Of a stretch of 64,000 bases of DNA, positions 6,263 through 64,000 are shown in pieces (the stretch's first letter is position 1; each line of letters opens with the position of its first letter). This DNA comes from Mustelus asterias (Eukaryota). Made by a program: the position numbers and the translations under genes. Location: assembly GCF_964213995.1 (NCBI RefSeq), contig NW_027590578.1, forward strand, positions 1 to 64,000, read 5' to 3'. The notes under the pieces were generated by a model. It worked only from the letters and a program-made list of their open reading frames with translations. It was not told where the DNA came from and searched no databases.

Positions 6263-6290
6263 CTAACATGCACACAGACAGAAACATACG

Positions 6291-6328
<38 letters not shown>

Positions 6329-38118: not shown

Positions 38119-38385
38119 GTGTTTCCCTGTCACTGTAGAAAACACAGCAGCCAATTTGGACTCAGTGTGACATTTCATTCAGTAATATTGTAGTGTTCTG
38201 TCTGTTTCAGGAATTGTGATTGGTGAACAGATATCAAACAGGACATTTCTCTGCTCTTCTTGGAAACAGTGACCATGTGATGTGTCACCTCCAGCTGAGA
38301 GGGAACACGGTGCCCCCGATTGAACAGGTCACCGAGAGGCTGGCAGCTCTGACGGTGCAGCGTTCCCTGAGCACGGCACTGTCTC
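38119..38385 (-). mobile_element. Degenerate DeuSINE (SacSINE1/AmnSINE-like); copies at ~47907 and ~57770
   Basis: CTGCTCTTCTTGGAAACAGTG..GAGAGGG..GGTGCAGCGTTCCCTGAGCACGGCACTG resembles the reverse Deu domain (recalled consensus, not aligned). Confidence 0.55.
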
Positions 38386-38944
38386 CTCGGTAAGTTCCCG
38401 GATTCTTATTCCTGCCAGACTGCCTGTGTCCTCTGGAGCGGAAAGAATCTCTGAACCGACTGGAGACAGAATCCGGGAAATCCTAGGAAGTGGTGGCCAC
38501 TCATTAACCCAATCCGGGAAAGAAACGGATTTAAATAAAATAATTGAAATTAAAAATAAACTTTTCTGGCCCGTGGAAACAAGAGGACAATGAATTTAAT
38601 CTCCAGAAAGAAATTTCAGTCGGAAACAGAAAGAAAGATTTTTATTGATGCCTTTTACAGACTTCAGATGTCCGAAAGCGCTTTCTAACCCAAGGAAGCT
38701 CATTTCCAGTGTCGCGCTGTGGTGATGTTAGAAACTTTATTAACACAGAAAACAGTGGGAATGTTTAATTCTCTGTCAGACAGGGTTGCCACACTGATCC
38801 AGGAATAAAGAGATTGCGGAGTCCAGGTATTTGAAGGTTACTTTGAACTCTCTCACACACAGGGACACACGCACACACTCTCCCTCTGTCTCTCGATGCA
38901 AAATCTCTGTCAGAGAGTGTGGCAAAACCTGTGCAAAATCTCAC

Positions 38945-39242
38945 TAGCTGTCCTGTCTGGAGACAATACACATCTGTTTAACCTGTGCTTAATGCTCCCT
39001 CCACTCACATTGTCTGTACCTTTAAGACTTGATTAGTTGTAAAGACTCACATTCCAATCATTATTCATGTAAATTGAGTTTGTGTCTTTGTGCACTGTTT
39101 GTGATCAGAACTCCCACTCACCTGACGAAGGGGCAGCACTCCTTTGGTTTTTGCTACCAAATAAACCTGTTGGACTTTAACCTGGTGTTGTAAGACTTCT
39201 TATCGTGTTTACCCCAGTCCAACGCCGGCATCTCCACATCTT
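38945..39242 (+). mobile_element. Penelope-like terminal repeat (copies ~48730-49029, ~58595-58900)
   Basis: Same terminal sequence as 19872-20064. Confidence 0.6.
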
Positions 39243-40802
39243 GTCTAGGTCACCAGAGGAACAGATTGCGAAATGATGAGACATGTCTTTATGGCGCAAT
39301 GCATGCAGTTAACCTCCAAATCTACTTCAGAGCAGCGGTAATGAAAGTTCTCAGATGTAGAGATCATGTAGCCAAAAATTACTGTTATATTATCTTCCAG
39401 GGCCGTTAACTGTGATTGCCCCAGCAATTCCTAGAACCAAACATTGGATGTGTCAAAGTCTGCTGTAGTTATGAATACTTGGATTGCTCAATAATAATTT
39501 CAACACAGACTCACCTCGTTAAAAAGGCTGTATTATCCGACAGTACCACGCACCACTTCCTGAATCAGTCGCTAATCAGCCATGCTAAACTCTCCCTCAG
39601 TGTACCCGAACAGGCGCCGGAGTGTGGCGACGAGGGGATTTCCACAGTAACTTCACTGCAGTGTTAATATAAGCTTACTTGCTACACTAATGAATAGACT
39701 GAAGCACTGAACTTCTGATCTAACCAATGACAGAAATCGACCAGCGGCAGCAATGTCTAGAAAAGCACAATGGTGTTAGAGTGAATTGCAGCAACCGGAA
39801 GCTGTGGCCGGGGACACCGCAGACTCAAAGCTGATGGAAGTGCGGAGTTCTCAGCGGCAGTCGCAGGTGATGGAGAGGAAACAGCGACAGCTGAACCTGC
39901 AGCAGTCTGTGACAACCTGCATCTGCTCACTGCTCAAGTGACTGAGAAAAAATAGTGACGGACGGGCGCGAATGGATCAGAAACAATTGACTCTCCCTGT
40001 GGCTCAATGAAAGATCTTTCCCAATTGCTCTTCTCACCCCCCATTCCACGAGTTGTTTTCCGTTCTCAAGGTCTGGCAATGCCTTTTTGAAATTTACTAT
40101 TGAATGCTCTTCCTTTATAGTTTGCGGCGCTCTACTCCAGATGGTAACAAATAGCAATGCAATGAATAACATTTATCGATCTCTGTCCACTTTTCTGTGA
40201 AAATGGGATGACTTGGTCGTTTATTTATCGAACAGGTGCATTGCTGCCTTTGTTCGTTCAAATGAACAGCGAACCGGTCTGAGAGACCTTGGGACCTATC
40301 TCAATGTCTGGCCCTCTACCACTTCATTAAATATCCCATAACTTACCCGGAATACTGCTCTGTCTAGATAGGTACAGAAAGCTTTCAGATATGGAGTGAC
40401 TGTCCCTTAGCACTCCTGACTGGTCTTCCAGAGCTTTCAACTCCGATGGAGTCTGGGAAACTCAATGTCTGTCACTCGTCCCTGCAGCCGAACTTAGAAT
40501 GTGTCACAGACTGGAATGGGATTTATCACAGGAAATAGACAAGGATCCTTTTAATATTGACTCAACGAATACTACGATTATTCCAATTTGGAAGCACCAT
40601 GGAACATGCGCTGCTCGGATGACATTTCCACAGAAAATAACCCAATTTAAATGTATTTTATCCGTTCTTTTTTAATTTTAAAGAGTAAACCCAAATCGGC
40701 AACAGGTCTCACTGATCGGGTGACTGTGGCGCGTATCCAAGGGAGAGAGTGATTAAAAACCCAGCTCTCTGCACAGGCTCCACTTTCTGGATGATCGCGG
40801 CA

Positions 40803-40841
40803 GGTTTTTGTACGGCCCTGTACGGTCTTTGCTAGACTGTG
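40803..40841 (-). other. 23-RSS of inverted V
   Basis: CACAGTC-23-ACAAAAACC on the minus strand. Confidence 0.93.
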
Positions 40842-41344
40842 CCTCCATCGCACAGAAATAGGTGGCGGTGTCTGTCAGCCGAGCTTCACTAACATTCAGA
40901 ACGCTGTGGTTCTCTGAGAAACTGTACTGAGCCGTGATCCTGCCCTGATCGCTGGTACCGCTCACCAGGTGCTGCACGGTTCTGTCTGGATTTTGTCTGT
41001 ACCATTGAAGGACCTTTCCAGCTCCTGTGTTTGAACAGTTCAACGATGCAGTGGCTCCCTCGGTAACAACCATTGACTCCGGAGACTGTGATAGCTCTTC
41101 ACTGCCAGCGGCACCTGGGAAGAATATGTACATTTGCAGTAAGAACATATCGTACTATAATGTAGCACAATAAAGTACCATTGTATTCACAATTCGAGAT
41201 GATATAATAAAGCTGAGTACAATTTAACAGAACATAACATTGCTGAGGTGTGAAATATTGCTGTCAGAAATAGTGACCACACTTACACTGAGGGAACAGT
41301 AAGGAATCCAGGAAAATAATCACCAAAGTGAAGCTCAGAAACAT
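40842..41344 (-). CDS. TRAV: Inverted TCR V segment, family B copy 1 (leader 41344-41287, V exon 41114-40842), short CDR2
   Basis: MFLSFTLVIIFLDSLLFPQ, phase-1 GTAAGT...CCAG, then AAGSEELSQSP..C..WYRQNP..DTATYFCAM. Confidence 0.9.
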
Positions 41345-41559
41345 GTTGGATCCTATCGGCTTGTGAGAAACAGCTGTCAGCAGATCCCAGGCTGAGAGAA
41401 GCTCCTGGGAAAGCAATGCGATTGGATATCAAACCGAGCCCCAAACCAGTCACAGAGTGGCGGTGAGAGCCGGGTCTCTGGGACTTGTGATCACAAAGTG
41501 AATCAGTGAGGGAGCTTCAGCATTGATAGTGCGGGGGAGGAGAGTGCGCATGCGACAGC

Positions 41560-41620
41560 GCATCCGGTATTGTGACGTCAGAACATCCGGCATTCTGACG
41601 TCAGAGCATCCGCGTCATTG
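41560..41620. promoter_or_regulatory. 23-bp CRE repeat, 2 TGACGTCA
   Basis: GAACATCCGGCATTCTGACGTCA unit, ~230 bp upstream of the V-B1 ATG. Confidence 0.7.
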
Positions 41621-41626
41621 TAACCT

Positions 41627-41950
41627 CATAGAATCATAGAATGCCTACAGTGCAGAAGGAGACCATTCGGCCCATTGAACCCGCACCGACCACAGCCCCA
41701 CCCAGGCCCTCTCCCCGTAACCTCACATCTTTACCCCGCGAATCCCCCTGACACGAGGGGGCAATTCAACATGGCCAGTCAACCCAACCCGCACATCTTT
41801 GGACTGAGGGAGGAAACCGGAGCACCCGGAGGAAACCCACGCAGACACGGGGAGAATGTGCAAACTCCAGACAGACAGTGACCCGAGGCTGGAATCGAAC
41901 CGGGGGCGCTGTGAGGCAGCTGTGCTAACCACTGTGGCACCGTGCCGCCC
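41627..41950 (-). mobile_element. HE1-like SINE inside the CRE-rich element (copies 51486-51809, 61308-61631)
   Basis: CATAGAATCATAGAATG...ACCGTGCCGCCC. Confidence 0.88.
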
Positions 41951-43175
41951 AACGTCAGACGTCAGAACATCGTGTATTGTGACGTCGGAATGCGGATATG
42001 TGTGGCGTCAGAATGTGTGACGTCACCCTGTAGCCCATGTGACGTCACTGTGAATTGCGAGTGACGCCAGTGGGTCTGGATTGTGGGTCAGAGACATTTC
42101 TCCTGGAGCTGATCTGAATATTCAGCCCTGAGTTGATGGGAATTAACAGCTGATCTGAAACATCTCTCCCGGAGCTGATGTGAATATCCAGCTGTGAGGT
42201 TGCGGAATTAAGATCTAATCAGAAGCAGGGAGGTCCTGCCTTCATGTGGGCCAGTGGTACAAGCAACACCGGGATCCACAGCCAAGGCTTATGAGAAAAA
42301 AGCTCTGTTTTGAAACAAATATAAGGAAGATTTTGCTAATACAGGTCTCCCAGTAGAATCTATCTGCCAGTTAAGCTTCCTTTTCTGCTTCCCATAAATT
42401 GTTTATTCCTTTAAAGCCAAGGTTTGATGTTCAGCTCAACTCCGGGAAAGTGTTTCCGCCGGCAGAACTTTGGAAAACACAAGCGTCTACTTTAGGAGGG
42501 GAGAGTGCAATGGAAAGATTAGATTAATTGATTACTCTCCGATTTGTTAAACTTGGAAGGTGGTCATCGGATCCCTACAGTGCAAAAGGAGGCCATTCGG
42601 CCCATCAAGTCTGCACCGACTCTTATCTAGGCCCTGCGGTGTTGAAAGAGATGGCGGAAGAAGAGATAATAGTAAGTTTTAGAAGGAAATGAGAGATAAG
42701 TTGAAAGCAGAAAAATGTCCGTGACTGTGAGAGATTCGAGGTTTGAAAGATGAATTGAAGAAATCTGTCAACTCTGAAATCTGTTAGGCAAAGATACCAT
42801 GGGCCGAGTGGCCACATCTCCTGCATTGATACGCTATGTTTCTATTTTGTTCATGTCCCTGGCCCCGTAATGCCCCTCCCTCTCTATTTCTTCTCAGTCA
42901 CTTGGATAGTGAGCAGGTGCAGAATGGTGACAGATTCCGGAGATGGAAGTCTCGCTATTTCTGTTCCGGGTGCAGCTGAAGCTGCCGCACACTCCACTCA
43001 ATATTTTGTCTACTGCATCCCCGCCCACGACTTCCGTTTTCTGCTCTCGTGATTGGACGGATTGCTGCCGCTGCTCCATTCCTCTCATTGGTTGGATCAG
43101 CAGTGCAGTGGAACAGTGTCTTTCTGTCTCTGACAGGATTTCACTCATTGCAGAGTTACAGACTCAGGAAGCATC

Positions 43176-43673
43176 ATGGTGAACTATCTCACTCCGATCC
43201 TCATCATTCTCTCACTTCTCAGTAAGCATTTTCTTCCCAGTAAAACTACAAGCTCCTCCTGACTGCTGTAACCCAGATATTCTTGTTGATAAAACAATAG
43301 TGATGATGATAATTGTATCGTTTAATCTGAGGCTAACTCTGATTGTCATATTGCTGTTGTTTCTGTTAGAATGGAGCCACCAAGACGAAGTGGAACAATT
43401 GGATCCTGGAATAAAGGTTAAAGAGGAAAATGATGTCACACTAACCTGCGCTTTGAAAACAAGCGATTCCAACCCTTATGTGTACTGGTACAGTCAGCAG
43501 CCCGGGAAAGCTCCAGTGTACATGTTTAAGCTGATTGGAGAGAATGTACAAAAGAATCCCGACCTCAATGATCGGTTTTCTTCCAAATTTGATAAAAAGA
43601 ACAAGACTAGCGAGCTAACGATCAGTAACACACTGATTTCCGACAGCGCCGGGTACTTCTGTGCCATGAAGCC
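43176..43673 (+). CDS. TRAV: TCR alpha/delta V segment, family C copy 1 (leader 43176-43221, V exon 43370-43673)
   Basis: MVNYLTPILIILSLL, phase-1 GTAAG...TTAG, then WSHQDEVEQ..C..WYSQQPGKAP..DSAGYFCAMK. Confidence 0.9.
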
Positions 43674-43713
43674 CACACTGCTGCAGAGATATAGCGAATC
43701 CCGTACAAAAACC
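43674..43713 (+). other. RSS with 24-bp spacer
   Basis: CACACTG-24-ACAAAAACC. Confidence 0.9.
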
Positions 43714-44030
43714 CCACACTGGCAGTTCCAGTTAGTTCCCAGCAGGGTGCGCGCGCACACACGCGGGTAATTCAATTTCCACAGAGAGAGTGACAGAGAT
43801 TCTTAACATTGCAACAAAAGACAACACTCAAAAACAGCAACTGGTGTGGTCCAGTTGCAGTTACATTAGTTAATGGTCGGAGCTTACATTTGCAATATCG
43901 ATCTGAGCTACTTCAACACTTTTTCTTTCGTTTTCGATGCCCTTCTCTGCCTATTTGTTGCAAACTGTCCATGTCTGCTGATTTATGGAAATTCTGCACA
44001 TTTCCTTTCAAGTCTTTAACATAAGCATTA

Positions 44031-45835
44031 AAGTTGTTGGAGAAGATTCTTAAAGATAGGATGTATGCGCATTTAGAAAGGAATATACTCATTAACGATA
44101 GTCAACATGGTTTTGTGAGAGGGAGGTCATGCCTCACTAACCTGGTGGTGTTTTTTGAAGAAGTGACGAAAATGGTTGACGAAGGAAGGGCCGTGGATGT
44201 TGTCTATATGGACTTTAGTAAAGCGTTTGACAAAGTCCCTCATGGTCGGCTAGTGAAAAAGGTTGGATCCCATGGGATAAAGGGGGAGGTGGCTAGATGG
44301 GTGGAGAACTGGCTTGGTCATAGAAGACAGAGGGTGGTAGTGGAAGGGTCTTTTTCCGGCTGGAGGCCTGTGACTAGTGGTGTACCGCAGGGCTCTGTAT
44401 TGGGACCTCTGCTGTTTGTGATTTATATAAATGATCTGGAAGAAGGAGTAACTGGGGTGATCAGTAAGTTTGCGGACGACACAAAACTGGCAGGACTTGC
44501 AGATAGTGAGGAACATTGTCAGAGGCTACAGAAGGATATAGATAGGCTGGAAATTTGGGCAAGGAAATGGCAGATGGAGTTCAATCCTGATAAATGCGAA
44601 GTGATGCATTTTGGTGGGAATAATGTAGGGAGGAGCTACACGATAAATGGAAGAACCATAAAGGGTGTAGAGACGCAGAGGGACCTGGGTGTGCAAGTCC
44701 ACAGATCTTTGAAGGTGACGTCACAGGTGGAGAAGGTGGTGAAGAAGGCATATGGCATGCTTGCCTTTATAGGACGGGGCATAGAGTATAAAAGTTGGGG
44801 TCTGATGTTGCAGATGTATAGAACGTTGGTTCGGCCGCATTTGGAATACTGCGTCCAGTTCTGGTCGCCACACGACCAGAAGGACGTGGAGGCTTTGGAG
44901 AGAGTACAGAGGAGGTTTACCAGGATGTTGCCTGGTATGGAGGGGCTTGGTTATGAGGAGAGATTGGGGAAACTGGGGTTGTTCTCCTTGGAAAGACGGA
45001 GGATGAGGGGAGACTTAATAGAGGTGTATAAAATTATGAAAGGCATAGATAGGGTGAACGGTGGGAAGCTTTTCCCCGGGTCGGTGGTGACGTTCACGAG
45101 GGGTCATAGGTTCAAGGTGAAGGGGGGGAGGTTTAACACGGATATCAGAAGGACATATTTCACACAGAGGGTCGTGGGGGCCTGGAATGTGTTGCCGGGC
45201 AAGGTGGTGGAGGCGGACACACTGGGAACGTTTAAGACTTATCTAGACAGCTATATGAACGGAGTGGGAATGGAGGGATACAAAAGAGTGGTCTAGTTTG
45301 GACCAGGGAGCGGCGCGGGCTAATTGTTCCTGGTTTCTCGTTTCAAGGCTTCATTCTATGATCATCTTGCTGGTGCCAGTACAGAGCGAGACTGCGGATA
45401 GTTGGGAACCTGTCTCGGGGGCAGGGAATTCATATGGTTTTCGTGGAAGTGGAAATGACTCGGGTTGGGAAGCATTTTCCGATCAGGGCCATTGTGATCT
45501 CCTGGACTCGTTTCGATCGCCTCAGGGGGTCGGAGAGGAATTTCCCAGATTTTTTTTTTCCCCATATTGGCCCTGGGGTTTTTCACTCTGGGTTTTCGCC
45601 TCTCCCTGGAGATCACATGGTCTGGAATGGGGGGGTGGGGGTGAGTTAATAGGTTGTAATGAACAAAGCATCGTAGCTGTGAGGGACAGCTCGGTGGATA
45701 GGATATTGGTATGTAGATAGGCTGGAAAATTGGGCGGGGATCCTGGATTCAGGATTCAATCCTGGACCGGGGAGCGGCGCGGGCTTGGAGGGCCGAAGGG
45801 CCTGTTCCTGTGCTGTATTGTTCTTTGTTGTTCTT
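44031..45835 (+). mobile_element. Young 5'-truncated CR1/HER1 LINE; open RT-to-C-terminus frame 44034-45296
   Basis: SQHGF..RSCLTNL..DFSKAFDKV..GVPQGSVLGP..FADD; ends GGGCCTGTTCCTGTGCTGTATTGTTCTTTGTT. Confidence 0.95.
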
Positions 45836-46785
45836 TTTCTGTTCCCTTGTACATTAAATCAGGACCTCTCCAATCCGGTTGCTCAGCTATTGGGTCCCAT
45901 TTTCAATCCACGTCACTGATGAGGATTTCGCTTTGTACTGAATCACTTACTAACCCGATACTCCTGGTGCAAGAATGCTGGTCCGCAGTGTGGAATGGAC
46001 ATTCAGCTGCCTCTCATATAGAGAGGCAAAGTTACAGAATTTCCAATTTGACATTGTTATTGAGTTCAGCTCCTTGCAGATAAATCCCAGCGGTCACCAC
46101 ACTGCCTATGGTAGCCCCACCCACAGTTTTCCTGTGCTGTTCGCACTCTGATATTTTATTGGAGATGTTGATCTTTGTTGCTTTTCCCTGTTTGGCACTG
46201 ATTGGATCAGCAGTCCAATGGGGAGACAAGCTATATTTCCACTCTGATAGAAGATTTGACAGGCTGCAAAATTACAAATTGAGAGAACATCATATGGAAA
46301 TATCTCAGACCATTCATTGTTCTGTCACTTCTTATGAGGTAGATGTTTTGACTAAAAAATCATCCTCCCCCGCACGATAGCTGATATCCCAAACATGATT
46401 AATAACAAACTGCTTGTTATGTTGCTGTGAGGATGGATATTGTCATTCTCCATGTCAGAACAGAGCCATCAGGACTCAGGGGAATGGTCGGTTCCTGAAA
46501 TGACGGTTGAAGGGGAAAGTAATCCCCTGTCGTGGGATGACCAAATTCACTTTGTTCCATTCGTCCCTCCGCCAATAGGATGAATTGCAGATAAAGGAAC
46601 TGTGAGGTCATTGGTTGAACTGAAGAACATAGGAGGTTGAATCCGATTGGATGTCATCTGATGACGTTTTCAATGGTAAACCAATCAACAGGTAGCCGGA
46701 TATGACTCACCCTTTTCCCAACTCTTGACCGACACAAATTCAGCTTCAACCCGTTCTGGTCAAATTCGCTGCGAGCTCTGCAAAC

Positions 46786-47660
46786 ATGTGTCTTGTTACT
46801 CTGTATTTATTCCTCACAGCGGCAGCTCTGTTAATCGGTAAGTTCACAAGTTGCTCACTCTGTGTTACACACCATTACCACACACTATATTCTGTCGGGC
46901 GGTTCGCTCAATGCAAGGGGGTTGATCAGGGAATGGATTGATCACAACATCGAAAAGTTATTTGGATCTCTCTGGTCTCAACACTGAACACTGTTGGGAT
47001 TCGGCACATTTCCCCCAGGGATTGATAGAGAATGAGTTGGGCTCAGATTCCAGCTCCTCTGATACCAGTGAACCACTTTGGCAAACATCACATTTCAAAC
47101 AGACCGTGAGCAGTTTCCAGTTACAGGGACTGAAGACGAGGAACTGATCTCGTTAGAAAGAAGAGAATGTTTATGGTGGAAGTTTTATTTAATCGCCACA
47201 AACGTCTTCCCATTCCAGCCACTGAACTGTGAAAAATATGTTTCTGTTTTGCTCTCTGATTTCTCCCTGAGATTATTTTTGCCGATAACGGGCAATATCT
47301 GGGAAAACTGAGATAAATTGCAATGCTTAATTTAATATTTCTTTGGACTCTTCCAGGACATTCCCGAGGAGATTCTGTTTCACAGACAGCGGCTGCAGTC
47401 ACCGTCACTGAAGGAGATGATGTTCGGTTGCTCTGTAATTACACAGCTACAGACATCAACCCTTATCTATTCTGGTACCGTCAGTATCCCAGTGGATCCA
47501 TGGAATATCTGCTGCAGACAAATAAATACACCGGGAACACAGGGAGATCCAAAGGGGACCGTTTTTCAGCAGAACTCAATGATACAACCCGCACAGTCCC
47601 TCTGAAAGTGTCTGAAACAGAGCTGGCAGACTCCGGGGTGTATTACTGCGCACTGAGACC
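46786..47660 (+). CDS. TRAV: TCR alpha/delta V segment, family D copy 1 (leader 46786-46837, V exon 47357-47660)
   Basis: MCLVTLYLFLTAAALLI, phase-1 GTAAGT...CCAG, then HSRGDSVSQ..C..WYRQYP..DSGVYYCALR. Confidence 0.92.
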
Positions 47661-47699
47661 CACAGAGACACAGAGCTGGGCTGAACCTCTACAAAAACT
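47661..47699 (+). other. 23-RSS
   Basis: CACAGAG-23-ACAAAAACT. Confidence 0.92.
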
Positions 47700-50592
47700 G
47701 CCAGAGCCTCACTCAACATAACAGAGCGTTAGGCAAACATTGTGATCAGAGTGAGTCTGATGTGGAACCTGAAATCGTGCTGGTATCTCAAACTTTTAAT
47801 TCTAATATATACATATGTATTATTTATAAATATATTACTAAACAAAAACAATGGGGGCAGCTTAGGGAATGAACATTTGACTATTTATAGAGTTTGATGT
47901 CCCAAAGTGTTTCCCTGTCACTGTACAAAACACAGCAGCCAATTTGGACTCAGTGTGACGTTTCATTCAGTAATATTGTAGTGTTCTGTCTGTTTCAGGA
48001 ATTGTGATTGGTGAACAGATATCAAACAGGACATTTCTCTGGTCTTCTTGGAAACAGTGACCATGTGATGTATCACCTCCAGCTGAGAGGCAACACGGTG
48101 CCCCCGATTGAACAGGTCACCGAGAGGCTGGCAGCTCTGACTGTGCACCGTTCCCTGAGCACTGCACTGTCTCCTCGGTAAGTTCCCGGATTCTTATTCC
48201 TGCCAGACTGCCTGTGTCCTCTGGAGCGGAAAGAATATCTGAACCGACTGGAGACAGAATCCGGGAAATCCTAGGAGGTGGTGGCCACTCATTAACCCAA
48301 TCCGGGAAAGAAACGGATTTAAATTAAAAAATGAAATTAAAAATAAACTTTTCTGGCCGTGGAAATATGAAGACAATGAATTTAATCTCCAGAAAGATAT
48401 TTCAGTCGAAAACAGAAAGAAATATTTTTATGGATGCCTTTTACAGACTTCAGATGTCCAAAAGCGCTTTTTAACCCAAGGAAACTCATGTCCAGTGTCG
48501 CCGCTGTGGTGATGGCAGAAACTTTATTAACACAGAAAACAGTGGGAATGTTTAATTCTCTGTCAGACAGGGTTGCCACACTGATCCAGGAATAAAGAGA
48601 TTGCGGAGTCCAGGTATTTGAAGGTTACTTTGAACTCTCTCACACACAGGGACACACGCACACACTCTCCCTCTGTCTCTCGATGCAAAATCTCTGTCAG
48701 AGAGTGTGGCAAAACCTGTGCAAAATCTCACTAGCTGTCCTGTCTGGAGACAATACACATCTGTTTAACCTGTGCTTAATGCTCCCTCCACTCACATTGT
48801 CTGTACCTTTAAGACTTGATTAGTTGTAAAGACTCACATTCCAATCATTATTCATGTAAATTGAGTTTGTGTCTTTGTGCACTGTTTGTGATCAGAACTC
48901 CCACTCACCTGACGAAGGGGCAGCGCTCCTTTGGTTTTTGCTACCAAATAAACCTGTTGGACTTTAACCTGGTGTTGTGAGACTTCTTACTGTGTTTACC
49001 CCAGTCCAACGCCGGCATCTCCACATCTTGTCTAGGTCACCAGAGGAACAGATTGCGAAATGATGAGACATATCTTTATGGCGCAATGCATGCAGTTAAC
49101 CTCCAAATCTACTTCAGAGCAGCGGTAATGAAAGTTCTCAGATGTAGAGATCATGTAGCCAAAAATTACTGTTATATCATCTTCCAGGGCCGTTAACTGT
49201 GATTGCCCCAGCAATTCCTAGAACCAAACATTGGATGTGTCAAAGTCTGCTGTAGTTATGAATACTTGGATTGCTCAATAATAATTTCAACACAGACTCA
49301 CCTCGTTAAAAAGGCTGTATTATCCGACAGTACCACGCACCACTTCCTGAATCAGTCGCTAATCAGCCATGCTAAACTCTCCCTCAGTGTACCCGAACAG
49401 GCGCCGGAGTGTGGCGACGAGGGGATTTCCACAGTAACTTCACTGCAGTGTTAATATAAGCTTACTTGCTACACTAATGAATAGACTGAAGCACTGAACT
49501 TCTGATCTAACCAATGACAGAAATCGACCAGCGGCAGCAATGTCTAGAAAAGCACAATGGTGTTAGAATGAATAGCAGCAACCGGAAGCTGTGGCCGGGG
49601 TCACCGCAGACTCAAAGCTGATGGAAGTGCGGAGTTCTCAGCGGCAGTCGCAGGTGATGGAGAGGAAACAGCGACAGCTGAAACCTGCAGCAGTCTGTGA
49701 CAACCTGCATCTGCTCACTGCTCAAGTGACTGAGAAAAAATAGTGTCGGGCGGGCGCGAATGGATCAGAAACAATTGACTCTCCCTGTGGCTCAATGAAA
49801 GACCTTTCCCAATTGCTCTTCTCACCCCTCATTCCACGGGTTGTTTTCCGTTCTCAAGGTCTGACAATGCCTTTTTGAAATTTACTATTGAATGCTCTTC
49901 CTTTATAGTTTGCGGCGCTCTACTCCAGATGGTAACAAATATCAATGCAATGAATAACATTTATCGATCCCTGTCCACTTTTCTGTGAAAATGGGATGAC
50001 TTGGTCGTTTATTTATCGAACAGGTTCATTGCTGCCTTTGTTCGTTCAAATGAACAGCGAACCGGTCTGAGAGACCTTGGGACCTCTCTCAATGTCTGGC
50101 CCTCTACCACTTCATTAAATATCCCATAACTTACCCGGAATACTGCTCTGTCTAGATAGGCACAGAAAGCTTTCAGATATGGAGTGACTGTCCCTTAGCA
50201 CTCCTGACTGGTCTTCCAGAGCTTTCAACTCCGATGGAGTCTGGGAAACTCAATGTCTGTCACTCGTCCCTGCAGCCGAACTTAGAATGTGTCACAGACT
50301 GGAATGGGATTTATCACAGGAAATAGACAAGGATCCTTTTAATATTGACTCACGGAATACCACGATTATTCCAATTTGGAAGCACCATGGAACATGCGCT
50401 GCCCGGATGACATTTCCACAGAAAATAACCCAATTTAAATGTATTTTATCCGTTCTTTTTTGATTTTAAAGAGTAAACCCAAATCGGCAACAGGTCTCAC
50501 TGATCGGGTGACTGTGGCGCGTATCCAAGGGAGAGAGTGATTAAAAGTCCAGCTCTCTAAACAGGCTGTACACGTTCCGGGTGATCGCGGCA

Positions 50593-53894: not shown

Positions 53895-55700
53895 AAGTTG
53901 TTGGAGAAGATTCTTAAAGATAGGATGTATGCGCATTTAGAAAGGAATATACTCATTAACGATAGTCAACATGGTTTTGTGAGAGGGAGGTCATGCCTCA
54001 CTAACCTGGTGGTGTTTTTTGAAGAAGTGACCAAAATGGTTGACGAAGGAAGGGCCGTGGATGTTGTCTATATGGACTTTAGTAAAGCGTTTGACAAAGT
54101 CCCTCATGGTCGGCTAGTGAAAAAGGTTGGATCCCATGGGATAAAGGGGGAGGTGGCTAGATGGGTGGAGAACTGGCTTGGTCATAGAAGACAGAGGGTG
54201 GTAGTGGAAGGGTCTTTTTCCGGCTGGAGGCCTGTGACTAGTGGTGTACCGCAGGGCTCTGTATTGGGACCTCTGCTGTTTGTGATTTATATAAATGATC
54301 TGGAAGAAGGAGTAACTGGGGTGATCAGTAAGTTTGCGGACGACACAAAACTGGCAGGACTTGCAGATAGTGAGGAACATTGTCAGAGGCTACAGAAGGA
54401 TATAGATAGGCTGGAAATTTGGGCAAGGAAATGGCAGATGGAGTTCAATCCTGATAAATGCGAAGTGATGCATTTTGGTGGGAATAATGTAGGGAGGAGC
54501 TACACGATAAATGGAAGAACCATAAAGGGTGTAGAGACGCAGAGGGACCTGGGTGTGCAAGTCCACAGATCTTTGAAGGTGACGTCACAGGTGGAGAAGG
54601 TGGTGAAGAAGGCATATGGCATGCTTGCCTTTATAGGACGGGGCATAGAGTATAAAAGTTGGGGTCTGATGTTGCAGATGTATAGAACGTTGGTTCGGCC
54701 GCATTTGGAATACTGCGTCCAGTTCTGGTCGCCACACTACCAGAAGGACGTGGAGGCTTTGGAGAGAGTACAGAGGAGGTTTACCAGGATGTTGCCTGGT
54801 ATGGAGGGGCTTGGTTATGAGGAGAGATTGGGGAAACTGGGGTTGTTCTCCTTGGAAAGACGGAGGATGAGGGGAGACTTAATAGAGGTGTATAAAATTA
54901 TGAAAGGCATAGATAGGGTGAACGGTGGGAAGCTTTTCCCCGGGTCGGTGGTGACGTTCACGAGGGGTCATAGGTTCAAGGTGAAGGGGGGGAGGTTTAA
55001 CACGGATATCAGAAGGACATATTTCACACAGAGGGTCGTGGGGGCCTGGAATGTGTTGCCGGGCAAGGTGGTGGAGGCGGACACACTGGGAACGTTTAAG
55101 ACTTATCTAGACAGCTATATGAACGGAGTGGGAATGGAGGGATACAAAAGAGTGGTCTAGTTTGGACCAGGGAGCGGCGCGGGCTAATTGTTCCTGGTTT
55201 CTCGTTTCAAGGCTTCATTCTATGATCATCTTGCTGGTGCCAGTACAGAGCGAGACTGCGGATAGTTGGGAACCTGTCTCGGGGGCAGGGAATTCATATG
55301 GTTTTCGTGGAAGTGGAAATGACTCGGGTTGGGAAGCATTTTCCGATCAGGGCCATTGTGATCTCCTGGACTCGTTTCGATCGCCTCAGGGGGTCGGAGA
55401 GGAATTTCCCAGATTTTTTTTTTCCCCATATTGGCCCTGGGGTTTTTCACTCTGGGTTTTCGCCTCTCCCTGGAGATCACATGGTCTGGAATGGGGGGGT
55501 GGGGGTGAGTTAATAGGTTGTAATGAACAAAGCATCGTAGCTGTGAGGGACAGCTCGGTGGATAGGATATTGGTATGTAGATAGGCTGGAAAATTGGGCG
55601 GGGATCCTGGATTCAGGATTCAATCCTGGACCGGGGAGCGGCGCGGGCTTGGAGGGCCGAAGGGCCTGTTCCTGTGCTGTATTGTTCTTTGTTGTTCTTT
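53895..55700 (+). mobile_element. CR1/HER1 LINE, duplicated with the cassette (ORF 53898-55160)
   Basis: One amino-acid difference (D/Y) from the 44034 copy; same flanks. Confidence 0.95.
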
Positions 55701-56649
55701 TTCTGTTCCCTTGTAAATTAAATCAGGACCTCTCCAATCCGGTTGCTCAGCTATTGGGTCCCATTTTCAATCCACGTCACTGATGAGGATTTCGCTTTGT
55801 ATTGAATCACTTACTAACCCGATACTCCTGGTGCAAGAATGCTGGTCCGCAGTGTGGAATGGACATTCAGCTGCCTCTCATATAGAGAGACAAAGTTATA
55901 GAATTTCCAATTTGACATTGTTATTGAGTTCAGCTCCTTGCAGATAAATCCCAGCGGTCACCACACTGCCTATGGTAGCCCCACCCACAGTTTTCCTGTG
56001 CTGTTCGCACTCTGATATTTTATTGGAGATGTTGATCTTTGTTGCTTTTCCCTGTTTGGCACTGATTGGATCAGCAGTCCAATGGGGAGGCAAGCTATAT
56101 TTCCACTCTGATAGAAGATTTGACAGGCTGCAAAATTACAAATTGAGAGAACATCATATGGAAATATCTCAGACCATTCATTGTTCTGTCACTTCTTATG
56201 AGGTAGATGTTTTGACTAAAAAATCATCCTCCCCCGCACTATAGCTGATATCCCAAACATGATTAATAACAAACTGCTTGTTATGTTGCTGTGAGGATGG
56301 ATATTGTCATTCTCCATGTCAGAACAGAGCCATCAGGACTCAGGGGAATGGTCGGTTCCTGAAATGACGGTTGAAGGGGAAAGTAATCACCTGTCGTGGG
56401 ATGACCAAATTCACTTTGTTCCATTCGTCCCTCCGCCAATAGGATGAATTGCAGATAAAGGAACTGTGAGGTCATTGGTTGAACTGAAGAACATAGGAGG
56501 TTGAATCCGATTGGATGTCATCTGATGACGTTTTCAATGGTAAACCAATCAACAGGTAGCCGGATATGACTCACCCTTTTCCCAACTCTTGACCGACACA
56601 AATTCAGCTTCAACCCGTTCTGGTCAAATTCGCTGCGAGCTCTGCAATC

Positions 56650-57525
56650 ATGTGTCTTGTTACTCTGTATTTATTCCTCACAGCGGCAGCTCTGTTAATC
56701 GGTAAGTTCACAAGTTGCTCAAGTCTGTGTTACACACCATTACCACACACTATATTCTGTCGGGCGGTTCGCTCAATGCAAGGGGGTTGATCAGGGAATG
56801 GATTGATCACAACATCGAAAAGTTATTTGGATCTCTCTGGTCTCAACACTGAACACTGTTGGGATTCGGCACATTTCCCCCAGGGATTGATAGAGAATGA
56901 GTTGGGCTCAGATTCCAGCTCCTCTGATACCAGTGAACCACTTTGGCAAACATCACATTTCAAACAGACCGTGAGCAGTTTCCAGTTACAGGGACTGAAG
57001 ACGAGGAACTGATCCCGTTAGAAAGAAGAGAATGTTTATGGTGGAAGTTTTATTTAATCGCCACAAACGTCTTCCCATTCCAGCCGCTGAACTGTGAAAA
57101 ATATGTTTCTGTTTTGCTGTCTGATTTCTCCCTGAGATTATTTTTGCCGATAACGGGCAAATTCTGGGAAAACTGAGTGAAATTGCAATGTTTAATTTAA
57201 TATTTCTTTGGACTCTTCCAGGACATTCCCGAGGAGATTCTGTTTCACAGACAGCGGCTGCAGTCACCGTCACTGAAGGAGATGATGTTCGGTTGCTCTG
57301 TAATTACACATCTACAGACATCAACCCTTATCTATTCTGGTACCGTCAGTATCCCAGTGGATCCATGGAATATCTGCTGCAGACACATAAATACACCGGG
57401 AACACAGGGAGATCCAAAGGGGACAGTTTTTCAGCGGAACTCAATTATACAATCCGCACAGTCCCGCTGAAAGTGTCTAAAACAGAGCTGGCAGACTCCG
57501 GGGTTTATTACTGCGCACTGAGACC
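56650..57525 (+). CDS. TRAV: TCR V segment, family D copy 2 (leader 56650-56701, V exon 57222-57525)
   Basis: As copy 1 with six amino-acid changes; open frame. Confidence 0.9.
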
Positions 57526-57564
57526 CACAGAGACACAGAGCTGGGCTGAACCTGTACAAAAACT
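57526..57564 (+). other. 23-RSS
   Basis: CACAGAG-23-ACAAAAACT. Confidence 0.92.
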
Positions 57565-58769
57565 GCCAGAGCCTCACTCAACATAACAGAGCGTTAGGCA
57601 AACATTGTGATCAGACTGAGTCTGATCTGGAACCTGAAATCGTGCTGGTATCTCAAACTTTTAATTCTAATATATATATGTATTATTTATAAATATATTA
57701 CCAAACTAAAACAATGGGGGCAGCTCAGGGAATGAACATTTAACTATTTGTAGAGTTTGATGTCCCAAAGTGTTTCCCTGTCACTGTACAAAACACAGCA
57801 GCCAATTTGGACTCAGTGTGACGTTTCATTCAGTAATATTGTAGTGTTCTGTCTGTTTCAGGAATTGTGGTTGGTGAACAGATATCAAACAGGACATTTC
57901 TCCTGCTCTTCTTGGAAACAGTGACCATGTGATGTATCACCTCCAGCTGAGAGGGAACACGGTGCCCCCGATTGAACAGGTCACCGCGAGGCTGGCCGCT
58001 CTGACGGTGCAGCGTTCCCTGAGCACGGCACTGTCTCCTCGGTAAGTTCCCGGATTCTTATTCCTGCCAGACTGCCTGTGTCCTCTGGAGCGGAAAGAAT
58101 CTCTGAACCGACTGGAGACAGAATCCGGGAAATCCTAGGAAGTGGTGGCCACTCATTAACCCAATCCGGGAAAGAAACGGATTTAAATTTTAAAAATGAA
58201 ATTAAAAATAAACTTTTCTGGCCGTGGAAACAAGAGGACAATGAATTTAATCTCCAGAAAGAAATTTCAGTCGAAAACAGAAAGAAAGATTTTTATTGAT
58301 GCCTTTTACAGACTTCAGATGTCCGAAAGCGCTTTCTAACCCAAGGAAGCTCATTTCCAGTGTCGCGCTGTGGTGATGTTAGAAACTTTATTAACACAGA
58401 AAACAGTGGGAATGTTTAATTCTCTGTCAGACAGGGTTGCCACACTGATCCAGGAATAAAGAGATTGCGGAGTCCAGGTATTTGAAGGTTACTTTGAACT
58501 CTCTCACACACAGGGACACACGCACACACTCTCCCTCTGTCTCTCGATGCAAAATCTCTGTCAGAGAGTGTGGCAAAACCTGTGCAAAATCTCACTAGCT
58601 GTCCTGTCTGGAGACAATACACATCTGTTTAACCTGTGCTTAATGCTCCCTCCACTCACATTGTCTGTACCTTTAAGACTTGATTAGCTGTAAAGACTCA
58701 CATTCCAATCATTATTCATGTAAATTGAGTTTGTGTCTTTGTGCACTGTTTGTGATCAGAACTCCCACT

Positions 58770-58804
58770 CACCTGACGAAGGGGCAGCGCTCCGAAAGCT
58801 CGTG
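58770..58804 (+). ncRNA. Candidate minimal hammerhead ribozyme (Penelope type)
   Basis: CAC-CTGACGA-A-GGGGC-AGC-GCTCC-GAAA-GC-TC-GTG. Confidence 0.55.
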
Positions 58805-60460
58805 GTTTTTGCTACCAAATAAACCTGTTGGACTTTAACCTGGTGTTGTGAGACTTCTTACTTTGTTTACCCCAGTCCAACGCCGGAATCTCTACATCTT
58901 GTCTAGGTCACCAGAGGAACAGATTGCGAAATGATGAGACATGTCTTTATGGCGCAATGCATGCAGTTAACCTCCAAATCTACTTCAGAGCAGCGGTAAT
59001 GAAAGCTCTCAGATGTAGAGATCGTGTAGCCAAAAATTACTGTTATATCATCTTCCAGGGCCGTTAACTGAGATTGCGCCAGCAATTCCTAGAACCAAAC
59101 ATTGGATGTGTCAAAGTCTGCTGTAGTTATGAATACTTGGATTGCTCAATAATAATTTCAACACAGACTCACCTCGTTAAAAAGGCTGTATTATCCGACA
59201 GTACCACGCACCACTTCCTGAATCAGTCGCTAATCAGCCATGCTAAACTCTCCCTCAGTGTACCCGAACAGGCGCCGGAGTGTGGCGACGAGGGGATTTC
59301 CACAGTAACTTCACTGCAGTGTTAATATAAGCTTACTTGCTACACTAATGAATAGACTGAAGCACTGAACTTCTGATCTAACCAATGACAGAAATCGACC
59401 AGCGGCAGCAATGTCTCGAAAAGCACAATGGTGTTGGAATGAATAGCAGCAACCGGAAGCTGTGGCCGGGGTCACCGCAGACTCAAAGCTGATGGAAGTG
59501 CGGAGTTCTCAGCGGCAGTCGCAGGTGATGGAGAGGAAACAGCGACAGCTGAACCTGCAGCAGTCTGTGACAACCTGCATCTGCTCACTGCTCAAGTGAC
59601 TGAGAAAAAATAGTGACGGACGGGCGCGAATGGATCAGAAACAATTGACTCTCCCTGTGGCTCTATGAAAGACCTTTCCCAATTGCTCTTCTCACCCCCC
59701 ATTCCACGTGTTATTTTCCGTTCTCAAGGTCTGACAATGCCTTTTTGAAATTTACTATTGAATGCTCTTCCTTTATAGTTTGCGGCGCTCTACTCCAGAT
59801 GGTAACAAATATCAATGCAATGAATAACATTTATCGATCCCTGTCCACTTTTCTGTGAAAATGGGATGACTTGGTCGTTTATTTATCGAACAGGTTCATT
59901 GCTGCCTTTGTTCGTTCAAATGAACAGCGAACCGGTCTGAGAGACCTTGGGACCTCTCTCAATGTCTGGCCCTCTACCACTTCATTAAATATCCCATAAC
60001 TTACCCGGAATACTGCTCTGTCTAGATAGGCACAGAAAGCTTTCAGATATGGAGTGACTGTCCCTTAGCACTCCTGACTGGTCTTCCAGAGCTTTCAACT
60101 CCGATGGAGTCTGGGAAACTCAATGTCTGTCACTCGTCCCTGCAGCCGAACTTAGAATGTGTCACAGACTGGAATGGGATTTATCACAGGAAATAGACAA
60201 GGATCCTTTTAATATTGACTCACGGAATACCACGATTATTCCAATTTGGAAGCACCATGGAACATGCGCTGCCCGGATGACATTTCCACAGAAAATAACC
60301 CAATTTAAATGTATTTTATCCGTTCTTTTTTGATTTTAAAGAGTAAACCCAAATCGGCAACAGGTCTCACTGATCGGGTGACTGTGGCGCGTATCCAAGG
60401 GAGAGAGTGATTAAAAGTCCAGCTCTCTGCACAGGCTCCAATTTCTGGATGATCGCGGCA

Positions 60461-60499
60461 GGTTTTTGTACGGCCCTGTACGGTCTTTGCTACACTGTG
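60461..60499 (-). other. 23-RSS (consensus) of inverted V
   Basis: CACAGTG-23-ACAAAAACC. Confidence 0.95.
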
Positions 60500-61002
60500 C
60501 CTGCATCGCACAGAAATAGGTGGCGGTGTCTGTCAGCCGAGCTTCACTAACATTCAGAACGCTGTGGTTCTCTGAGAAACTGTACCGAGCCGTGATCCTG
60601 CCCTGATCGCTGGTACCGCTCACCAGGTGCTGCACGGTTCTGTCTGGATTTTGTCTGTACCAATGAAGGACCTGTCCAGTTACTGTGGCTGAACAGTTCA
60701 ACGATGCAGTGGCTCCCTCGGTAACAACCACTGACTCCGGAGACTGTGATAGCTCTTCACTGCCAGCGGCATCTGGGAAGAATATGTACATTTGCAGTAA
60801 GAACATATCGTACTATAATGTAGCACAATAAAGTACCATTGTATTCACAATTCGAGATGACACAATAAAGCTGAGTCCAATTTAACAGAACATAACATTG
60901 CTGAGGTGTGAAATATTGCTGTCAGAAATAGTGACCACACTTACACTGAGGGAACAGTAAGAAATCCAGGAAAATAATCAACAAAGTGAAGCTCAGAAAC
61001 AT
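60500..61002 (-). CDS. TRAV: Inverted TCR V segment, family B copy 3 (leader 61002-60945, V exon 60772-60500)
   Basis: Same architecture; CDR1 SATVTGQVLH. Confidence 0.9.
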
Positions 61003-61215
61003 GTTGGATCCTATCGGCTTGTGTGAAACAGCTGTCAGCAGATCCCAGGCTGAGAGAAGCTCCTGGGAAAGCAATGCTATTGGATATCAAACCGAGCCCC
61101 AAACCAGTCACAGAGTGTCGGTGAGAGCCGGGTCGCTGGGACTTGTGATCACAAAGTGAATCAGTGAGGGAGCTTCAGCATTGATAGTGCGGGGGAGGAG
61201 AGTGCGCATGCGACA

Positions 61216-61297
61216 GAACATCCGGTATTGTGACGTCAGAACATCCGGCATTGTGACGTCAGAACATCCGGCATTCTGACGTCAGAGCATCCGCGTC
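61216..61297. promoter_or_regulatory. 23-bp CRE repeat, 3 TGACGTCA
   Basis: TGACGTCA at 61231, 61254 and 61277. Confidence 0.75.
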
Positions 61298-62895
61298 ATT
61301 GGAACCTCATAGAATCATAGAATGCCTACAGTGCAGAAGGAGACCATTCGGCCCATTGAACCCGCACCGACCACAGCCCCACCCAGACCCTCTCCCCGTA
61401 ACCTCACATCTTTACCCCGCGAATCCCCCTGACACGAGGAGGCAATTCAACATGGCCAGTCAACCTAACCCGCACATCTTGGGTCTGTGGGAGGAAACCG
61501 GAGCACCCGGAGGAAACACACGCAGACACGGGGAGAACATCCAAACTCCAGACAGACAGTGACCCGAGGCTGGAATCGAACCGGGGGCGCTGTGAGGCAG
61601 CTGTGCTAACCACTGTGGCACCGTGCCGCCCAACGTCAGACGTCAGAACATCGTGTATTGTGACGTCGGAATGCGGCTATGTGTGGCGTCAGAATGTGTG
61701 ACGTCACCCTGTAGCCCACGTGACGTCACTGTGAACTGCGAGTGACATCAGTGGGTCTGGATTGTGGGTCAGAGACATCTCTCCTGGAGCTGATCTGAAT
61801 ATTCAGCCCTGAGTTGATGGGAATTAACAGCTGATCTGAAACATCTCTCCCGGAGCTGATGTGAATATCCAGCTGTGAGGTTGCGGAATTAAGATCTAAT
61901 CAGAAGCAGGGAGGTCCTGCCTTCATGTGGGCCAGTGGTACAAGCAACACCGGGATCCACAGCCAAGGTTTATGAGAAAAAGCTCTGTTTTGAAACAAAT
62001 ATAAGGAAGGTTTTGCGAATACAGGTCTCCCAGTAGAATCTATCTGCCAGTTAAGCTTCCTTTTCTGCTTCCCATAAATTGTTTATTCCTTTAAAACCAA
62101 GGTTTGATGTTCAGGTCAACTCCCGGAAAGTGTTTCCGCCGGCAGAACTTTGGAAAACACAAGCGTCTACTTTAGGAGGGGAGAGTGCAATGGAAAGATT
62201 AGATTAATTGATTACTCTCCGATTTGTTAAACTTGGAAGGTGGTCATCGGATCCCTACAGTGCAAAAGGAGGCCATTCGGCCCATCAGGTCTGCACCGAC
62301 TATTATCTAGGCCCTATCCCTGCGGTGTTGAAAGAGATGGCGGAAGAAGAGATAATAGTAAGTTTCAGAAGGGATTGAGAGATAAATTGAAAGCAGAAAA
62401 GTGCAGTCACTGTGAGAGATGCGGGGTTTGAAAGCTGAATTGAAGAATTCTGTAATTCTGAATTCTCCACATCAATTCTGCATTCTGTCAGGCAAAGACA
62501 CCATGGGCCGAGTGGCCACATCTCCTGCATTGATACGCTATGTTTCTATTTTGTCCATGTCCCTGGCCCCGTTATGCTCCTCCCTCTCTATTTCTTCTCA
62601 GTCACTTGGACAGTGAGCAGGTGCAGAATGGTGACAGATTCCGGAGATGGAAGTCTCGCTATTTCCGTTCCGGGTGCAGCTGAAGCTGCCGCACACTTCA
62701 CTCAATATTTTGTCTACTGCATCCCCGCCCACGACTTCCGTTTTCTGCTCTCACTCTGAACCTATTGTGTGATTGGACGGATTGCTGCCGCTGCTCCATT
62801 CCTCTCATTGGTTGGATCAGCAGTGCAGTGGAACAGTGTCTTTCTGTCTCTGACAGGATTTCACTCACTGCAGAGTTACAGACTCAGGAAGCATC

Positions 62896-63393
62896 ATGGT
62901 GAACTATCTCACTCCGATCCTCATCATTCTCTCACTTCTCAGTAAGTATTTTCTTCCCAGTAAAACTACAAGCTCCTCCTGACAGCTGTAACCCAGATAT
63001 TCTTGTTGATAAAACAATAGTGATGATGATAATTGTGTCGTTTAATCTGAGGCTAACTCTGATTGTCATATTGCTGTTGTTTCTGTTAGAAAGGAGCCAC
63101 CAAGACGAAGTGGAACAATTGGATCCTGTAATAAGGGTTAAAGAGGAAAATGATGTCACACTAACCTGCGCTTTGAAAACAAGCTATTCCAGCCCTAATG
63201 TGTACTGGTACAGTCAGCAGCCCGGGAAAGCTCCAGTGTACATGTTTCAGCTTATTGGAGAGATTGTGCAAAGGAACACCGACCTCAATGACCGGTTTTC
63301 TTCCAAATTTGATAAAAAGAACGAGACTACCGAGCTGACGATCAGTAACACACTGATTTCCGACAGCGCCGGGTACTTCTGTGCCATGAAGCC
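62896..63393 (+). CDS. TRAV: TCR V segment, family C copy 3 (leader 62896-62941, V exon 63090-63393)
   Basis: Open frame; CDR1 KTSYSSPNVY, CDR2 FQLIGEIVQR. Confidence 0.9.
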
Positions 63394-63433
63394 CACACTG
63401 CTGCAGAGACAGAGCCAATGCCGTGCAAAAACC
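63394..63433 (+). other. RSS with 24-bp spacer
   Basis: CACACTG-24-GCAAAAACC. Confidence 0.85.
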
Positions 63434-63667
63434 CCAGACTGGCAGTTCCAGTTAGTGCCCAGCAGGGTGCGCGCGCACACACGCGGGTAATTCAGTTTCC
63501 ACAGAGAGAGTGACAGAGATTCTTAACATTGCAACAAAAGACAACTCTCAAAAACAGCAACTGGTGTGGTCCAGTTGCAATTACATTAGTTAATGATCGG
63601 AACTTACATTTGCAATATCGATCTGAGATACTTCAACACCTTTTTTTTTCGTTTTCGATGCCTTTCT

Positions 63668-64000
63668 CATAGAAATCATAGAGACCCTACAGTACAGAAA
63701 GAGGCCATTCGGCCCATCGAGTCTGCACCGACCACAATCCCACCCAGGCCCTACCCCCATATTCCTACATATTTTACCCGCTAATCCCTCTAATCTACAC
63801 ATCCCAGGACACTAAGGGGCAATTTTAGCATGGCCAATCAACCTAACCCGCACATCTTTGGACTGTGGGAGGAAACCGGAGCGCCCGGAGGAAACCCACG
63901 CAGACACGAGGAGAATGTGCAAACTCCACACAGACAGTGACCCAAGCCGGGAATCGAACCCGGGTCCACTGGAGCTGTGAAGCAGCAGTGCTAACCACTG
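63668..64000 (-). mobile_element. HE1-like SINE unique to unit 3
   Basis: CATAGAAATCATAGAGACCCTACAG...GCAGCAGTGCTAACCACTG; absent at the equivalent sites ~43947 and ~53811. Confidence 0.9.

Follow-up and report, generated by a model that had tools for sequence, protein, structure and literature searches.

The window analysed here, the first 64,000 nucleotides of the unplaced Mustelus asterias scaffold G000:C546, in all likelihood holds the J-proximal V genes of a shark TCR-alpha locus. These are organized around a head-to-head V module of old origin, from which families C and D would join by deletion and family B by inversion. We give about even weight to a wider model in which the alpha/delta locus is an antibody-like multicluster, composed of two delta-less alpha arrays, about 19 (D)-J-C-delta miniclusters, some with V and D already joined in the germline, and a shared multi-megabase V field of mixed orientation; alpha joining would then spare delta, and B1, B2 and B3 would form a CDR1 editing series.

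Positions 38119-64000 comprise 2.6 tandem units, B-C-CR1-D twice and then B-C (Table 1). Self-BLAST, a self-comparison suggested by a first-pass annotation of the same DNA, revealed the tandem repeat at 97.1% identity (38119-53811 against 47907-63668). The units are 97.3-98.6% alike, with 1.4-2.7% differences and indels of their own. The layout described in the first-pass annotation, an inverted B head-to-head with C followed by CR1 and D over about 9.8 kb, was recovered in units 1 and 2, the only two complete ones, and the ATG-to-ATG distance that it put at about 1.8 kb measures 1,832, 1,906 and 1,894 bp in the three B/C pairs. Unit 3 is cut by a SINE-like insertion different from CR1. All three units lie in a single gap-free stretch. 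Units 1 and 2 differ by 135 substitutions in about 9.8 kb as well as by distinct indels, so they are not one sequence that the assembly collapsed or doubled. Their divergence is mosaic: the first 4.0 kb hold 87 substitutions, and the 3.5 kb around CR1 (43,619-47,118) only 11.

Table 1. Units, V genes and other features of the window
Feature	Position	Strand	Remarks
V gene A1, upstream of cassette	31900..32426	+	consensus 23-RSS; 5'-most V of scaffold
V gene A2, upstream of cassette	35173..35757	+	open frame, 26-bp spacer
Unit 1 (B1, C1, CR1, D1)	38119..47906	+	9,788 bp; self-BLAST
V gene B1: leader, intron, V exon	40803..41344	-	RSS CACAGTC-23-ACAAAAACC; inverted vs J and C
Head-to-head spacer B1-C1	41345..43175	.	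CRE-like TGACGTCA 23-bp repeats
V gene C1	43176..43713	+	RSS CACACTG-24-ACAAAAACC
CR1-like LINE insertion, 5'-truncated, RT domain	44031..45830	+	Pfam RVT_1 E 1e-30; ~1.8 kb
V gene D1	46786..47699	+	RSS CACAGAG-23-ACAAAAACT
Unit 2 (B2, C2, CR1, D2)	47907..57769	+	9,863 bp
V gene B2, inverted	50593..51134	-	23-RSS
V gene C2	53040..53577	+	24-bp spacer
V gene D2	56650..57564	+	23-RSS
Unit 3, partial (B3, C3; ends before CR1 and D)	57770..63668	+	5,899 bp
V gene B3, inverted	60461..61002	-	consensus 23-RSS
V gene C3	62896..63433	+	24-bp spacer; nonamer GCAAAAACC

The cassette contains eight V genes, namely B1-B3 on the minus strand and C1-C3, D1 and D2 on the plus strand. Each consists of a leader exon, a phase-1 intron and a V-set exon with Cys-Trp-Cys, as in TRAV segments. 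C1 and D1 matched Pfam V-set, and the best non-scFv PDB matches of D1 are TCR alpha chains. RSS-like sites, defined by at most two mismatches and a spacer of 22-24, number eight in 38119-64000 versus none in each of 30 base shuffles. The claim of open frames, intact splice sites and RSS stands for the leader and V frames and the GT/AG sites (8/8, or 10/10 with A1 and A2) and for the 23-bp spacers of families B and D, but not fully for family C, in which the spacer is 24 bp in 3/3 window copies and in 16/16 intact copies genome-wide, so that an "intact RSS" in this family means one base off canonical. The spacer of A2 likewise departs from 23 bp, at 26 bp, and intact A2 paralogs have 22-23. No V exons were detected on C546 beyond 32-63 kb, no V relic was found in its satellite-like start, and on the J-array side the Vs end with C3.

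Extension along the scaffold, which the first-pass annotation had proposed for locating J and C, identified 146 J-like segments (138,253-236,917), a C-alpha exon (240,150) and a TM exon (241,997), all on the plus strand. A re-run of the J search returned 147 matches, one of them outside the array, and 139 pass for frame, donor and F/W-G-x-G. These C and TM exons match Mustelus asterias models that RefSeq names "TCR alpha chain-like", located on a contig of 249,259 bp. Of 223 ORFs listed, the 83 on the plus strand were compared with Pfam and gave one C1-set match, C-alpha, the rest being RT and zinc fingers. The Vs are in cis with the 12-RSS J array and C-alpha; a 200-N run separates the V block from the J array, and across it the link rests on a paralogous scaffold, C71, which is collinear there. 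Since C546 is unplaced, further Vs or delta clusters may sit just past its ends. A great white shark model places A1-like (61%) and D-like (59%) Vs before J and C-alpha on one strand within 152 kb.

Three inverted and seven forward Vs lie within 75-106 kb of the first J. A V with a 23-RSS that points away from 12-RSS Js joins by inversion. Because the Js and C-alpha are all on the plus strand, family B is the inverted class and is predicted from this geometry to join these Js only by inversion, with the intervening Vs kept and flipped, as had been anticipated for one orientation class before J and C were located. We propose that the head-to-head module was likely multiplied by unequal crossing-over, and that families C and D would reach the downstream J-alpha by deletion and family B by inversion. 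One B-J join would flip 78-196 kb. Once B1 had joined a J, the nearest deletion-oriented V would be B2, followed by B3, and B1, B2 and B3 may constitute an ordered editing path through copies whose differences lie mostly in CDR1.

Evidence from sequencing runs is confined to part of the block. Five runs were listed with the C-alpha exon, none of them recorded as RNA. Contigs of four runs (at most two samples, one study) were compared with 31,700-41,600 only, a span that does not cover families C and D, and absent cover there proves nothing. Among the matches listed for these four runs (815 further loose ends), there were no V-J joints, and family B was represented by one unspliced, unrearranged contig at depth 5. 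An A2-type leader in spliced form (X2, X4) is also present among the run contigs, as is read-through of unrearranged sequence. One predicted RefSeq isoform joins the A1 leader and part of the A1 V to the C546 C-alpha. The signal-joint pattern has one match in the germline genome, on an unrelated chromosome (C8).

The B/C spacer is likely a two-way promoter, and its TGACGTCA 23-bp repeats number 2.3, 5.5 and 3.5 copies in units 1, 2 and 3. Family B could be a passenger, kept by the promoter spacer that it shares with C, while RAG scanning uses only C and D and B is used, if at all, from copies that point at a delta cluster. We regard this as improbable. The lack of rearranged B sequence among the matches listed for the four runs would fit, as would the proximity of the module to delta clusters on other scaffolds, the B copies of C436, which share the strand of a C-delta gene yet lie downstream of it, and the mostly deletional secondary Igk joins described in mouse (PMC13190342). 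However, 15/15 B copies are intact with a 23-bp RSS (family C, 16/18; family D, 7/9; 12 stretches of 11 scaffolds), 14/14 close B copies differ in protein, B holds the better RSS of the B/C pair, and the two orientation classes of salmon TRAV are described as both used, at similar rates (PMC8559430). Inversional joining of family B is the reading that we retain.

The module itself has a longer history than the cassette. A complete copy of the unit, 98.5% alike over 9.8 kb, is also present on C386, where the genes are ordered differently; the B-C module was found on many scaffolds with and without CR1, tandem D-B junctions without CR1 occur on C315 and C436, and the gene order of module copies varies between scaffolds. 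CR1 is common to units 1 and 2 and to copies on C386 and C1126; C1151, C232, C387 and C71 have an empty site. Given modules and D-B junctions that lack CR1 on other scaffolds, the mixed-orientation module predates the recent duplication. The tandem layout is older than the CR1 insertion, and what the recent event duplicated was a mixed-orientation module that already existed. The first-pass annotation had called the duplication recent, and this applies to part of it, since the CR1 blocks of units 1 and 2 show two differences in 1,800 bp, but not to the mixed-orientation module. Nor is mixed orientation the surprise that it had seemed: it is general in elasmobranch alpha/delta V fields, and great white, stingray and epaulette shark carry alpha/delta Vs on both strands (PMC12227049 Table S1).

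The cassette is an ordinary route of V growth; its delta-less context is the less ordinary part of the locus. The stretch from the V block to J-alpha on C546 yielded no delta J-C unit, and the scaffold as a whole no J-delta or C-delta match. Where a canonical nested TRA/TRD locus has D-delta, J-delta and C-delta, the only trace is two D-delta relics, both broken and with a 3' spacer of 15 bp (the D-segment pattern had 0 matches in strict and 10 in looser form). Given no delta unit in that interval, joins from the C546 block would spare delta. Genome-wide, there is not one C-alpha and one C-delta; we found two C-alpha and 19 C-delta exons, the latter paired with 19 TM exons and spread over 17 scaffolds. 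One scaffold, 20.4 Mb long, carries three of the C-delta genes together with the second C-alpha. All seven C-delta loci inspected are J-C miniclusters, in two of which V and D are already fused in germline DNA, and delta may be supplied by about 19 such separate clusters.

The second alpha J-C array, on C71, has 38 J and 74% amino-acid identity to C546; a search of C71:18.25-18.44 Mb found no V exon. C546 and C71 were rejected as two haplotypes of one locus, since their C exons are 84% alike and they carry 146 versus 38 J. On C71, a family-D V is joined to the 3' portion of D-delta and is followed by the D's own 23-RSS, showing that family D has recombined. It is very unlikely that much of this multiplicity, both small-scaffold cassettes and many C-delta, is assembly redundancy in the form of retained haplotigs of a hard region: most copies are on unplaced scaffolds (0.05-2.6 Mb), three C-delta exons encode the same protein sequence (100% over 94 aa) and four copies of the CR1 block differ at only 2-6 of 1,800 bases, but the gap-free window units diverge with their own indels, three C-delta genes share the 20.4-Mb scaffold, identity among C-delta proteins is 85 to 100%, the 5 C-delta exons compared (of 7) are 92.6-98.9% alike, the C-alpha exons have diverged as stated and gene order differs among scaffolds. 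A literature search, mostly of sources without full texts, found no published multi-copy shark C-delta or Mustelus TCR locus. Multi-copy TCR loci were reportedly described in horned shark in the 1990s, which would lower the novelty.

As here, the elasmobranch alpha/delta V field is described as occupying both strands over megabases, among IgM, IgW and NAR-TCR genes; the same source terms TCR alpha/delta a translocon, and the word "orientation" is absent from its main text (PMC12227049). Shark TCR genes are also described as translocons in reviews (PMC6795676). In stingray and catshark, C-alpha is immediately preceded by one delta constant model, and no such model is listed for great white (PMC12227049 Table S1), whereas in Mustelus asterias the C-alpha scaffold yielded no C-delta and all 19 are on other scaffolds. 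Inversional joining and the idea of secondary rearrangement are already known in other fish: in salmonid TRA/TRD, Vs opposite to J/C are reported to join by inversion, preserving intervening genes for secondary rearrangement, and both orientation blocks are expressed (PMC8559430). However, the salmonid Vs form large blocks of a single orientation downstream of C, and D-J-C-delta adjoins J-alpha (PMC8559430), whereas in Mustelus asterias they lie upstream of J and orientation alternates gene by gene. In mouse Igk, too, Vs of both the deletional and the inversional kind precede a single J array and V-J joins are replaced in succession, but it has four Js and clustered orientations in contrast to about 140 Js and a head-to-head module (PMC13190342). 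Nested delta is described as nearly universal; the newt, as here, has two TRA loci and no TRD nested within TRA, but its TRD constant genes number one or two and are on another chromosome, in contrast to 19, three with the second C-alpha (PMC12698447).

The C546 cassette offers a short, fully mapped test bed, in which inverted and forward Vs are told apart by CDR1, and it can discriminate orientation-bound RAG scanning from Igk-like diffusion in shark. If delta does reside in Ig-like clusters apart from a delta-free alpha, how alpha-beta/gamma-delta and allelic exclusion are maintained becomes a question, and the arrangement is relevant to which of the two organizations, clusters or translocons, is ancestral.

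Amino-acid variants among the copies cluster in CDR1 in families B (10/20) and D (10/22), and family C has no CDR1 excess (p 0.26). Positive selection was rejected as a demonstrated cause, since overall N/S counts are not above neutral in any family (p 0.44, 0.99, 0.43), family C lacks the excess and the family B CDR1 also holds four synonymous variants. Taken together, these counts indicate that conversion or a mutation hot spot accounts for the pattern as well as selection does.

Self-comparison of the window bore out the repeated V unit described in the first-pass annotation, revealing a tandem repeat at 38,119-63,668 that comprises two complete units (9,788 bp and 9,863 bp) and a third, partial unit of 5,899 bp. 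The window is the opening 64 kb of scaffold C546 (249,259 bp; genome 3.68 Gb). The cassette carries eight V genes, with A1 and A2 upstream of it. The leader+V frame is open with GT/AG splice sites in all ten, as the annotation had stated for families B, C and D, and the ATGs of the head-to-head B/C pairs lie 1,832-1,906 bp apart (1.8 kb in the annotation). Its claim of intact RSSs throughout held in part: eight RSS-like sites are present (0 across 30 shuffles) and the spacer is 23 bp in B, D and A1, but it is 24 bp in family C (16/16 intact copies). The A2 RSS (window 35,716-35,757) has a 26-bp spacer vs 22-23 bp in intact paralogs; four bases at 35,732 are absent from the contigs of four of four runs, which may be paralog-derived.

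On C546, a relaxed scan identified 146 J-like segments with 12-RSS at 138,253-236,917, all on the + strand, and no V genes were found past C3. The whole J array lies on the + strand with C-alpha downstream, so in this cassette, which is real, the inverted family is B. A 200-N run at 129,550, which may be an assembly gap or withheld sequence, lies between the V block and the J array. Sequence comparison supports the joining of the two across this run, since a paralogous region of scaffold C71 is collinear with C546 to either side of it and in a great white model, J and C-alpha share one strand with Vs resembling A1 and D. C2H2 zinc-finger sequence (L002-L004) is located at C546 ~82-95 kb, after C3 and before the first J.

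Features of the V cassette, the alpha arrays and the delta clusters
Feature	Location	Strand	Description
B1-B3	cassette	-	V genes
C1-C3, D1-D2	cassette	+	V genes
23-bp tandem repeat	window 41,561-41,612; 51,346-51,471; 61,214-61,293; 38,030-38,081		TGACGTCA core
D-delta relics L005, L006	C546 ~113.6 kb (113,600), ~120.8 kb (120,800)		15-bp 3' spacer vs 23 in intact Ds
C1-set exon	C546:240,150		3' of J array; matches RefSeq TCR-alpha-like models, Mustelus asterias
TM exon	C546:241,997		3' of J array; matches RefSeq TCR-alpha-like models, Mustelus asterias
Second J-alpha/C-alpha array (L031-L037)	G000:C71:18,370,797-18,431,907		38 J + C exon
C-delta + TM exon pairs	C71 (7.14, 11.04, 12.27 Mb), C90, C96, C106, C110, C111, C115, C119, C123, C138, C154, C173, C181, C401, C436, C850, C3311		
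L054	G000:C71:11,023,780		broken family-D V fused to 3' end of D-delta, D's 23-RSS
L043	G000:C436:213,728		open NAR-TCR supporting V fused to 3' end of D-delta, D's 23-RSS

Whether a V joins by deletion or inversion is set by its orientation relative to J. For C, D and A1, deletion would be the route to J-alpha; B would need inversion of 78-196 kb. The inversional joining proposed for one orientation class is thus geometrically right (B -, J +) but already known: great white, stingray and epaulette shark each carry alpha/delta Vs of either orientation, which makes mixed orientation ordinary in this group (PMC12227049 Table S1), and excerpts of PMC8559430 state that inversion keeps genes for secondary rearrangement and that both orientations are expressed in salmon. 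A B1-J inversion would leave B2, then B3, deletional and upstream of the new join, and would turn C and D inversional. In mouse Igk, secondary joins favour nearby deletional Vs (excerpt of PMC13190342); by analogy, such a preference would predict a B1-B2-B3 editing series, altering mostly CDR1. Contigs of four runs, compared with window 31,700-41,600 (A1, A2 and B1), contained a spliced leader of A2 type as well as read-through of unrearranged sequence; family B was represented by one unspliced contig, and no V-J joint was among the matches listed.

The duplication had been called recent. Between U1 and U2 there are 135 substitutions, 87 within the first 4.0 kb and 11 within 3.5 kb around the CR1, and U3 diverges from both by 2.3-2.7%. 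This mosaic divergence would fit unequal crossing-over, repeated, or conversion. A family-B 27-base pattern gave 27 matches on 21 scaffolds, and a pattern common to C and A2-type Vs gave 112. We compared module copies in 12 stretches from 11 scaffolds. Sequence comparison indicates that the module and its mixed orientation predate the CR1-marked copying, because the head-to-head B-C pair was found again in these 12 stretches, D-B tandem junctions on C315 and C436 are without CR1, and the CR1 site is empty on four of the scaffolds surveyed. The CR1 of the window is also present on C386 (2 differences/1,800 bases) and C1126 (6/1,800). Taken alone, the cassette is a recent expansion of a kind already known.

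Amino-acid variants are concentrated in CDR1 in B (10/20) and D (10/22), and family C is without such clustering. Selection on CDR1 was rejected as a demonstrated cause: N/S is not above neutral overall, the counts ignore phylogeny, and B CDR1 has synonymous variants as well. Upstream of D1, window 46,196-46,340 holds a degenerate promoter and leader resembling those of family C, with no V exon. The 23-bp repeat, whose core we take to be CRE-like, differs in copy number among units, and an inverted relic of the B/C spacer with this repeat lies immediately left of unit 1. A 2-kb direct duplication (6,260-8,271 and 29,320-31,329; 98.8% identity) flanks a repeat-rich 21 kb and also matches C1151, beside another V group.

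The setting of the cassette, a delta-less alpha locus of a genome that also carries ~19 delta clusters, is what makes it worth checking. J-delta and C-delta had no match on C546. A 12-RSS J-like element at C546:121,302 follows the two D-delta relics and is conserved on C71. The C-alpha exon of the second alpha array shares 74% protein and 84% DNA identity with that of C546; no V, D or C-delta was found in the 120 kb upstream of this array, and V-like matches lie on the - strand of C71 at 17.80 and 19.40 Mb.

TM-exon and C-delta-exon searches each returned 19 paired places on 17 scaffolds. The 19 C-delta places, three of them on C71, have no stops and show 85-100% identity to the query, and 'T cell receptor delta constant' of skate and of stingray (36-37%) is among the relatives of the exon. 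Part of the 19 may be haplotigs, as suggested by three that are identical across the 94-aa exon. In PMC12227049 Table S1, one delta constant model adjoins C-alpha in stingray and catshark, and none is listed for great white, whereas Mustelus asterias combines a C546 C-alpha lacking a C-delta match with ~19 delta clusters. Excerpts of PMC6795676 term shark TCR loci translocons, and excerpts of PMC12698447 treat newt TRA/TRD separation as an exception. No published multi-copy shark C-delta was found in the literature searched, some key shark papers lying outside its reach. Older reports are said to describe multi-copy TCR loci in horned shark. We put at even chances that the delta-less alpha locus and the clusters are both real and unpublished.

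All seven C-delta places inspected (of 19) are J-C miniclusters, with 3-5 J segments each in these scans. A free D (12-D-23) occurs in five; in two, a V is joined onto the end of D and bears the 23-RSS of that D. The fused V on C71 joined a D short of its first three bases, and by their sequence both fusions look like RAG joins fixed in the germline. Several C-delta genes are tied to NAR-TCR domains in RefSeq models. A perfect-looking 12/23 signal joint is present in the assembly at G000:C8:50,402,754, on a different chromosome.
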